Shown here piece by piece: positions 46,541-47,400 of a stretch of 64,000 nt of DNA. Under the pieces are notes generated by a model. The model saw only the letters and a program-made list of their open reading frames with translations, searched no databases and had not been told where the DNA came from. Each line of letters begins with the position of its first letter. Position 1 is the first letter of the stretch. Origin of the DNA: Escherichia phage APCEc01; the sequence record NC_029091.1. One strand, 5' to 3'. The position numbers and the translations under genes are program-made.

Positions 46541-46614
46541 GGCCCTGTAGCTCAATGGTTAGCAGCAGTCCCCTCATAAGGGAAAGGTTACCAGTTCGAA
46601 TCTGGTCTGGGTCA
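46541..46614 (+). tRNA. tRNA with CAU anticodon (Met or lysidine-modified Ile)
   Basis: cloverleaf: acceptor GGCCCTG/CTGGGTC, anticodon loop CTCATAA, T-arm ACCAG-TTCGAAT-CTGGT; D-stem imperfect. Confidence 0.6.
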
Positions 46615-46620
46615 TATATT

Positions 46621-46697
46621 CGAGGCATAGCTCAATTGTATAGAGCAACGGACTTCTAATCCGTAGGTTGAAGGTTAGAATCCTTCTGTCTCGACCA
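46621..46697 (+). tRNA. tRNA-Arg (anticodon UCU) with encoded CCA
   Basis: acceptor CGAGGCA/TGTCTCG, D-stem GCTC/GAGC, anticodon stem ACGGA/TCCGT with loop CTTCTAA, T-arm GAAGG-TTAGAAT-CCTTC, 3' ACCA. Confidence 0.75.
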
Positions 46698-46715
46698 ACT
46701 TTAAGTGAGGAAAAT

Positions 46716-47060
46716 ATGAAAGGTAATATTTATCTGGTAGTTCATGATTTAACGTTTTATTTTAATGAACAGGATACAGTTATTTCCGACCGGTTGATTA
46801 ATTCGTTATATCAACACGCTGATTACGTTTATTTCCAAAATGAATTTGGCCATTGGAAGTTTCTTAAAAACCGTTCCGGGTTAACTAGTTTTGAATACTT
46901 TGACCGTAAAGACCTTTTAAACGAAATTCCATTACAACATCGGTTCCAGAAACGCGAATCACTATACTATTGTCGTCATATACCAAATGCTGAATGTGTT
47001 TATGAAGCGATTAATCTATGGCGTCGGCGTCGAGAGCAAATTGATGATATGCCAAAATAA
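46716..47060 (+). CDS. hypothetical protein (114 aa)
   Basis: start at ATG with SD GAGGA downstream of the tRNAs; the track ORF start lies inside the tRNA. Confidence 0.5.
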   Translation: MKGNIYLVVHDLTFYFNEQDTVISDRLINSLYQHADYVYFQNEFGHWKFLKNRSGLTSFEYFDRKDLLNEIPLQHRFQKRESLYYCRHIPNAECVYEAINLWRRRREQIDDMPK

Positions 47061-47064
47061 GAAG

Positions 47065-47372
47065 CCGGGTCGCTACCGGCAAGTCGTCGGACTGATGTTC
47101 CCTGAGTAAGGACTGGTCTTAATAAATCTTTACGATTTGTTAATATCCCCTTACATCACAGCAGAAACGGCGCACAGAATTATCGATTCGAGGAAATATC
47201 TTTGTCGTAAGCCGAGTAGCGTTTTTGACGGAACGTTCGGATATGGTCGAGATATGGCCTTTTAAAAATATTGAGTAGCGTCAACTGCTTAATAACCGGG
47301 TTCGAATCCCGGCGTTTCGTACAAACACTTGCCTTAGCAGGTGGAACCCCGACAAGGTTGCCGCAAGGCTTA
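47065..47372 (+). ncRNA. putative small stable RNA region (position of T4 rnaC/rnaD species 1 and 2 RNAs)
   Basis: about 300 nt with no plausible plus-strand ORF, tRNA-like T-arm CCGGG-TTCGAAT-CCCGG at about 47287, ends at a terminator. Confidence 0.3.
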
Positions 47373-47400
47373 GCCCCTTCCGAAAGGTCGGGGCTTTTTG
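47373..47400 (+). terminator. rho-independent terminator
   Basis: GCCCCttccgaaaggtcGGGGC followed by TTTTTGG; same motif family as 47916 and 63611. Confidence 0.6.

Follow-up and report, generated by a model that had tools for sequence, protein, structure and literature searches.

The species 1 and species 2 RNAs of bacteriophage T4, encoded by rnaC and rnaD (T4s001, T4s002; NC_000866) at the distal end of its tRNA operon, have been known for 50 years. They are among the oldest phage RNAs of unknown function and are still given as such in the literature (PMC3014915, PMC9697503, PMC12685909). The T4 tRNA cluster is reported to be transcribed from a middle promoter located just upstream, with transcription ending after the species 1 gene (PMC2330249). 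Cleavage by RNase P and CCA repair are established for the T4 tRNA precursors. The species 1 RNA of T4 (RNAC) has been detected by Northern blot, and both RNAs are classed as late (PMC9697503). T4 has 8 tRNAs, and phage RB69 has 2 in its entire genome, with the anticodons CAU (Ile) and UCU (Arg) (Nolan et al. 2006, PMC1524935). Here we describe the corresponding locus of Escherichia phage APCEc01 (NC_029091.1). The window analyzed is the whole 64-kb stretch of this genome; all positions are window coordinates and refer to the plus strand unless stated otherwise.

The segment from about 46454 to 47399, taken as a whole, is very probably the operon for tRNAs and stable RNAs in a T-even phage of the RB69 type (Mosigvirus); this is the best explanation of the locus. 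The genes are ordered tRNA-Ile(CAU), tRNA-Arg(UCU), an ORF of 114 amino acids, rnaD, rnaC, a conserved trailer and an intrinsic terminator. The region 46400-47450 is 100% identical to Mosigvirus phage vB_EcoM_SCS57 (OM960734.1) and 96-99% identical to other Mosigvirus genomes, for example JK45, O157 typing phage 3, ATK47 and Shf125875. The layout is that of RB69 (NC_004928), from which it shows no difference of substance: the RB69 record has a CAU tRNA labelled "Met", a UCU tRNA-Arg and ORF150c, followed by a gap in which rnaD and rnaC are both present and unannotated, and a covariance model built from rnaC homologs (see below) matches in this gap (contig L144, 6157-6298). T4 has rnaD and rnaC in the same order and at the same distal place in the operon, and shares the trailer and terminator; T4-type records are about 93% identical to the window over the rnaD-rnaC-trailer region. 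Since 47057-47399 aligns base for base with T4, the two RNAs are sequence orthologs of T4 rnaD and rnaC and not merely their positional counterparts. The initial annotation had proposed a match in position to the species 1 and 2 RNAs; the correspondence is thus stronger than was claimed, with the qualification that the order is species 2 followed by species 1. What was already known at this locus is the RB69 tRNA pair, described in 2006, and the orthologs of the T4 species 1 and 2 RNAs: rnaC is annotated at the equivalent place in Mosigvirus ATK47, and both RNAs are annotated in RB-series Tequatrovirus records. What our analysis adds is a covariation-supported fold for rnaC, its placement in tRNA slots of the tRNA arrays of other phages, and the independent occurrence of rnaD and rnaC.

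The rnaC gene (47183-47321) aligns almost base for base with the annotated T4 gene; its ends, like those of rnaD, are transferred from the T4 annotation by homology. Three kinds of search supplied the homologs: blastn, pattern scanning of IMG/VR and of metagenomes, and a covariance model, under which the rnaC of the window reaches 164 bits (E = 5e-39). With scores of 89-168 bits, full-length homologs are present in Tequatrovirus, Mosigvirus, Kanagawavirus, Winklervirus, Tegunavirus, Karamvirus, Moonvirus and unclassified Klebsiella phages. A loose pattern scan of IMG/VR returned mostly chance matches, and four pattern matches from soil metagenomes were discarded as chance matches in protein-coding sequence. 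The covariation analysis used 34 distinct homologs from at least seven genera of Tevenvirinae (23 sequences in an earlier set). Of the 45 pairs predicted by RNAalifold, 21 show compensatory changes. Over the 34 sequences 93% of the cells are paired, compared with 36-42% in controls whose partners were shifted by 1-3 columns, and the set of 23 gave a similar result; 27/52 pairs have changed on both sides. Across the analyses these values are 93-94% and 25-27/52. None of 500 shuffles reached the covariation observed. Compared with shuffled sequence, the region 47057-47400 as a whole folds with z = -3.9, rnaC with z = -2.7 and rnaD with z = -3.35.

In the conserved fold the two ends of rnaC form an acceptor stem of 7 bp (47184-47190 with 47313-47319), supported by pairs that are A:U in some homologs and G:C in others. 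Where the stem of the window has two U.U mismatches, Tegunavirus has U:A and C:G. At the position of a D-arm stands a long irregular arm (47191-47260), followed by an A-rich linker (47261-47268), a 10-bp hairpin (47269-47294) and one unpaired base (47295). The T-arm, CCGGG-TTCGAAT-CCCGG (47296-47312), has a 5-bp stem beside the acceptor stem; the initial annotation had noticed a tRNA-like T-arm in this region, and it is in fact a perfect one. The 3' tail, U-ACA-A (47320-47324), reads U-NCA-A in all homologs and U-CCA-A in two Klebsiella phages, and in its sequence it looks like the discriminator base and CCA end of a tRNA. In Kanagawavirus and Winklervirus the T-loop is UGCAUGC or UGCAUUC rather than UUCGAAU, with one of only 6 nt (contigs L004, L005, L135 and L148), and the T-stem of these homologs covaries normally.

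The fold also includes a kissing helix, in which UUGACG (47225-47230), at the tip of the long arm, pairs with CGUCAA (47279-47284) in the loop of the 10-bp hairpin. Its six pairs are kept in 34/34 distinct homologs, through independent double changes at different positions: UUGAUG/CAUCAA in Tegunavirus and UUGGCG/CGCCAA in Klebsiella phages. Klebsiella phage KLB31 has an arm of unrelated sequence and retains the UUGACG apex. The search did not impose the pairing: combinations unable to pair also satisfied the retrieval pattern, and the variants came from blastn. Because the loops of the long arm and of the hairpin pair with each other over 6 bp, rnaC presents no anticodon. We conclude that rnaC is a structured tRNA-like RNA, consisting of a tRNA-shaped handle on a closed body of two arms.

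Rfam 15 has no family for either rnaD or rnaC, and searches at E up to 10 gave only chance-level matches beyond the two tRNAs; the Rfam check suggested for the locus therefore supported the tRNAs and returned no family for the stable RNAs. Against the tRNA model RF00005, rnaC falls below the gathering score, and in its conserved fold no anticodon loop is free. The one match, to tRNA-Sec, is weak (16.6 bits, threshold 47) and makes use of an internal acceptor strand. A cloverleaf in which this internal strand, ACGGAACG, serves as the acceptor and CUUUUAA as the anticodon loop of a tRNA-Lys was considered and rejected: the strand is unpaired in Tegunavirus and KLB31, and in the other homologs from Kanagawavirus and Winklervirus it leaves an A.C mismatch, while the 5'-terminal acceptor stem covaries and the UUUU is not conserved. 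A complementarity of 6 nt between rnaD and rnaC was seen by eye; phages with rnaC alone do not conserve it.

The initial annotation had described about 300 nt here as free of any plausible plus-strand ORF, and this is borne out. Between 47061 and 47444 all ORFs are short and unconserved (42 and 49 amino acids on the plus strand, 74 on the minus strand), and the next gene begins at 47445. These ORFs, and the many records that show a "hypothetical protein" CDS or a "tRNA-Lys" at this place, could be taken to mean that rnaC is a tRNA pseudogene in decay that has acquired insertions, in a region that partly codes for small proteins. We consider this extremely improbable. Homologs of rnaC (141-144 nt) show insertions and deletions of one base, and what their substitutions preserve is pairing and not reading frames; we therefore reject a protein-coding reading of 47061-47444. 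Covariation also maintains precisely the parts that are not tRNA-like, and the orthologous T4 genes yield discrete stable RNAs.

The second RNA gene, rnaD (47057-47176), also aligns almost base for base with its annotated T4 counterpart. In an alignment of 17 homologs hardly any change is seen in the first 48 nt or the last 25 nt, and the apical hairpin occurs in three unrelated versions; that of T4 differs in sequence from that of the window. RNAalifold on these homologs predicts a 5' hairpin (47064-47080), whose closing pair alternates between A:U and G:C, and a long-range closing stem (47083-47089 with 47168-47172 and 47174-47175). The pair U47096:A47163 covaries, being U:A in 9 sequences and A:U in 7. 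The encoded 3' end in the window is GCGCACAG (CAG); it is CCA in T4 and CCG, CAA or CCU in other homologs. In T4 rnaD abuts tRNA-Arg, and here the 114-aa ORF intervenes. The encoded CCA of T4 rnaD and its adjacency to tRNA-Arg are traits of T4 and do not define the family. Thus rnaD, too, is a structured RNA, built of an invariant core that carries a hypervariable apical hairpin; it is not recognizably tRNA-like. When a T4-like phage was evolved on E. coli strain ECOR34, every line acquired the same single-nucleotide polymorphism (SNP) in rnaD (2025, PMC12685909), the only phenotype-linked observation that we found for either RNA. In some genomes an element of about 65 nt (...GCCGTCGTATGAAGACTGATTACCAGCATTCACCGGCGCAACA) lies between a T4-type tRNA-Arg and rnaD (contig L008, about 1435-1500; also L139, L140 and L141). 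It resembles a truncated copy of the core of rnaD (GUCGU...GACUGAU...CGGCGCA), from which the 5' and apical hairpins are missing.

In Kanagawavirus, Winklervirus, Tegunavirus and Klebsiella phages rnaC sits within tRNA arrays, starting 6-7 nt after a tRNA (Entb_45, kv_tblp5) or ending 5 nt before the next one (Kc304, TG1). These gaps of 5-7 nt are the usual spacing between tRNAs, which fits maturation by RNase P and 3'-end enzymes. At the sensitivity of blastn rnaD was not found in these same phages. Dhakavirus-like loci have the converse arrangement, in which rnaC is absent and the trailer and terminator come straight after rnaD. In one phage genome (IMG/VR 2706795408; contig L137, reverse strand, about 8000-8700) an ORF of about 130 amino acids replaces rnaC. 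Because each occurs without the other among phages, rnaD and rnaC are independent modules in a cassette-like operon end. The slot between rnaD and the trailer/terminator (ACACTTGCC...) is seen to hold rnaC, the ~130-aa ORF or nothing (L137; L008, L138 and L140-L143).

It might be argued from this dispensability (loci without rnaC, its replacement by an ORF in one genome, several genera without rnaD), and from the distal position beside a conserved trailer and terminator, that the RNAs are cis-acting parts of the operon or stable by-products, with no role in trans. As structured spacers they would guide processing, protect the 3' end of the tRNA precursor or aid termination. This is unlikely in our judgement. 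In Winklervirus and Tegunavirus rnaC lies in the middle of the array, far from terminators, and other phages have a working trailer and terminator without it. Moreover the fold and its long-range kissing helix are kept by compensatory changes across genera, which exceeds the needs of a spacer.

An acceptor/T-arm minihelix serves as a handle for tRNA enzymes in the tRNA-like domain of tmRNA, in YrlA, a bacterial RNA of the Y-RNA type, and in the 3' tRNA-like structures of plant viruses. In rnaC, as in these RNAs, the acceptor/T-arm would be such a handle, with the rest of the molecule put to other use; unlike them, rnaC forms the acceptor from its own 5' and 3' ends, its two arms kiss, and it has neither a tag ORF nor a Ro-binding stem. 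No tmRNA was called by ARAGORN in the window, and the YrlA model scored 17.8 bits (threshold 69), and on the true tRNAs only. Our preferred, though tentative, reading is that rnaC may be a non-decoding tRNA mimic that acts in trans and is bound by a tRNA-recognizing protein, a possibility rather than an expectation. A more elaborate version is unlikely as it stands: rnaC would be a purpose-built mimic whose handle recruits the tRNA-maturation enzymes of the host and whose kissing-locked body neutralizes a tRNA-directed host factor (for instance an immune nuclease, a processing enzyme or a toxin that modifies 3' ends), and rnaD would act alongside it as a determinant of host range.

Also of low likelihood is the related proposal that rnaC, and possibly rnaD, is an anti-defence decoy, which soaks up or inhibits a host immune enzyme that targets tRNAs (an anticodon nuclease, or an enzyme modifying the tRNA 3' end) and so affects host range. 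The tRNA-like minihelix and 3' tail of rnaC would suit such a role, as would the CUUUUAA linker of T4- and RB69-type phages, which ARAGORN reads in phage G4507 as the anticodon loop of a tRNA-Lys(UUU). However, the UUUU stretch is not conserved beyond Tequatrovirus and Mosigvirus, the tRNA-Lys-like fold requires the internal acceptor strand that is not conserved, and the conserved fold buries the hairpin loop in the kissing helix. Looser support comes from the rnaD SNP shared by all ECOR34-adapted lines and from a distribution confined to phages: the family pattern was absent from 185,579 species genomes of bacteria and archaea (GTDB), and blastn of rnaD and rnaC gave no match in 5,426 E. coli genomes, either as host similarity or as an antisense target. 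We found no link in the literature between either RNA and a defence system.

ARAGORN found exactly two tRNA genes in the whole window, as the initial annotation had it, and the predicted anticodons are CAU and UCU. Taken as a comparison of counts, the statement that T4 has more also holds, the RB69 type having 2 and T4 8 (PMC1524935). The covariance model RF00005 (gathering score 29 bits) gives 54.0 bits for the CAU tRNA (46541-46614) and 71.1 bits for 46621-46694 of the UCU tRNA (46621-46697), each with a full cloverleaf and anticodon loop. As had been noted, the tRNA-Arg gene encodes its own CCA, at 46695-46697 (gene end ...GTCTCG-A-CCA); the CAU tRNA has no encoded CCA and is followed by TAT.

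The CAU tRNA is labelled tRNA-Met by ARAGORN and in GenBank and tRNA-Ile in two related records. It is identical to T4 tRNA-Ile at 73/74 positions of the alignment. The "Met" label is a known software artefact, since ARAGORN gives the same label to the T4 tRNA-Ile gene. The CAU tRNAs of T4-like phages carry IleRS signatures and have been assigned as lysidine-modified readers of AUA (PMC1524935). This assignment, together with the difference of a single nucleotide from T4 tRNA-Ile, rules out a tRNA-Met, and from that near identity the gene is predicted to encode a lysidine-type tRNA-Ile that reads AUA. The tRNA-Arg(UCU), which would read AGA, is on alignment dissimilar to the T4 tRNA-Arg(UCU), being a separate sequence lineage with the same anticodon and position. 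This lineage directly abuts rnaD, without ORF150c, in several phages (contigs L067, L068, L138, L142 and L143).

Over 59 long ORFs of the window, 17% of Ile codons are AUA and 17% of Arg codons are AGA, at frequencies of 12.8 and 7.6 per 1000 codons, respectively. Both codons are several-fold rarer in E. coli, where the tRNAs for both are scarce. Codon supplementation is the simplest reading of the tRNA pair, because the phage often uses the two codons that its host rarely uses.

At the head of the operon, a pattern scan found a motif like the MotA box of middle promoters (46454-46478; TGCTTTA, a 12-nt spacer and TATTAT); the first tRNA begins some 60 nt further on. Such motifs are more numerous in the window than expected (9 vs 2.2). 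The nearest late-promoter motif on the same strand, TATAAATA, lies at 43622, about 3 kb upstream. The MotA-type motif is the probable start of the operon transcript. The stretch from this motif to tRNA-Ile, presumably the 5' leader of the precursor transcript, contains a hairpin, AAAGGTGC-TCTAAA-GTGCCTTT (46500-46521).

The 3' end of the operon had been placed at a terminator in the earlier reading, and this was confirmed: a terminator-like hairpin, AGCCCC...GGGGCT followed by TTTTT, lies at 47372-47399, where related records also annotate a terminator, and a consensus scan reports its inner stem at 47378-47393. Between rnaC and the terminator is a conserved 3' trailer with small hairpins (47322-47371), identified by alignment with T4. 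Since phages without rnaC retain it, the trailer belongs to the operon end and not to rnaC.

We can now propose how the operon might work. A single transcript would run from the MotA-type middle promoter to the terminator. Host RNase P would cut the 5' ends of both tRNAs and of rnaC, and host exonucleases and the CCA-adding enzyme would finish the 3' ends, as for the T4 tRNAs. Such processing by tRNA-maturation enzymes would explain the stability of the RNAs. The two tRNAs would then top up the decoding of AUA and AGA, and rnaC might act as the tRNA mimic suggested above.

Several points weigh against this scheme. The promoter is assigned from a motif match. All RNA ends and the expression of the RNAs in this phage are carried over from T4. 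The handling of rnaC by RNase P and the CCA-adding enzyme is proposed by analogy, since its acceptor has two U.U mismatches and its encoded tail is ACA and not CCA, and some rnaC homologs have the non-canonical T-loop UGCAUGC. The modelled rnaD fold has about 6 covarying pairs and is only partly tested, since most of its pairs never vary. Deletions of the T4 tRNA region proved viable on laboratory hosts in the genetics of the 1970s, and any function must therefore be conditional. Finally, codon bias accounts only weakly for the tRNA content of T4-like phages (PMC1524935).

If the more elaborate version of the mimic, with rnaD acting alongside, were true, the T4 species 1 and 2 RNAs would at last have a function. 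Independently of this, the rnaC fold and its loop-loop helix provide concrete targets for mutation, and the covariance model would correct hundreds of genome annotations. Many genome records have a "hypothetical protein" CDS drawn across rnaC and rnaD, and rnaC is mis-annotated as tRNA-Lys(ttt) in G4507 (contig L171, 467-560), G29 and phage 55; ARAGORN reproduces the G4507 label.

The remaining gene of the operon is the 114-aa ORF (46716-47060), between tRNA-Arg and rnaD, a homolog of RB69ORF150c. A Pfam search with it returned no family, and no search gave an informative one; it matches phrog_3355, a family of unknown function, with E = 1.9e-50. Its TAA stop codon (47058-47060) overlaps the predicted 5' end of rnaD, and the release of rnaD would therefore cut the ORF mRNA at or beside the stop codon.

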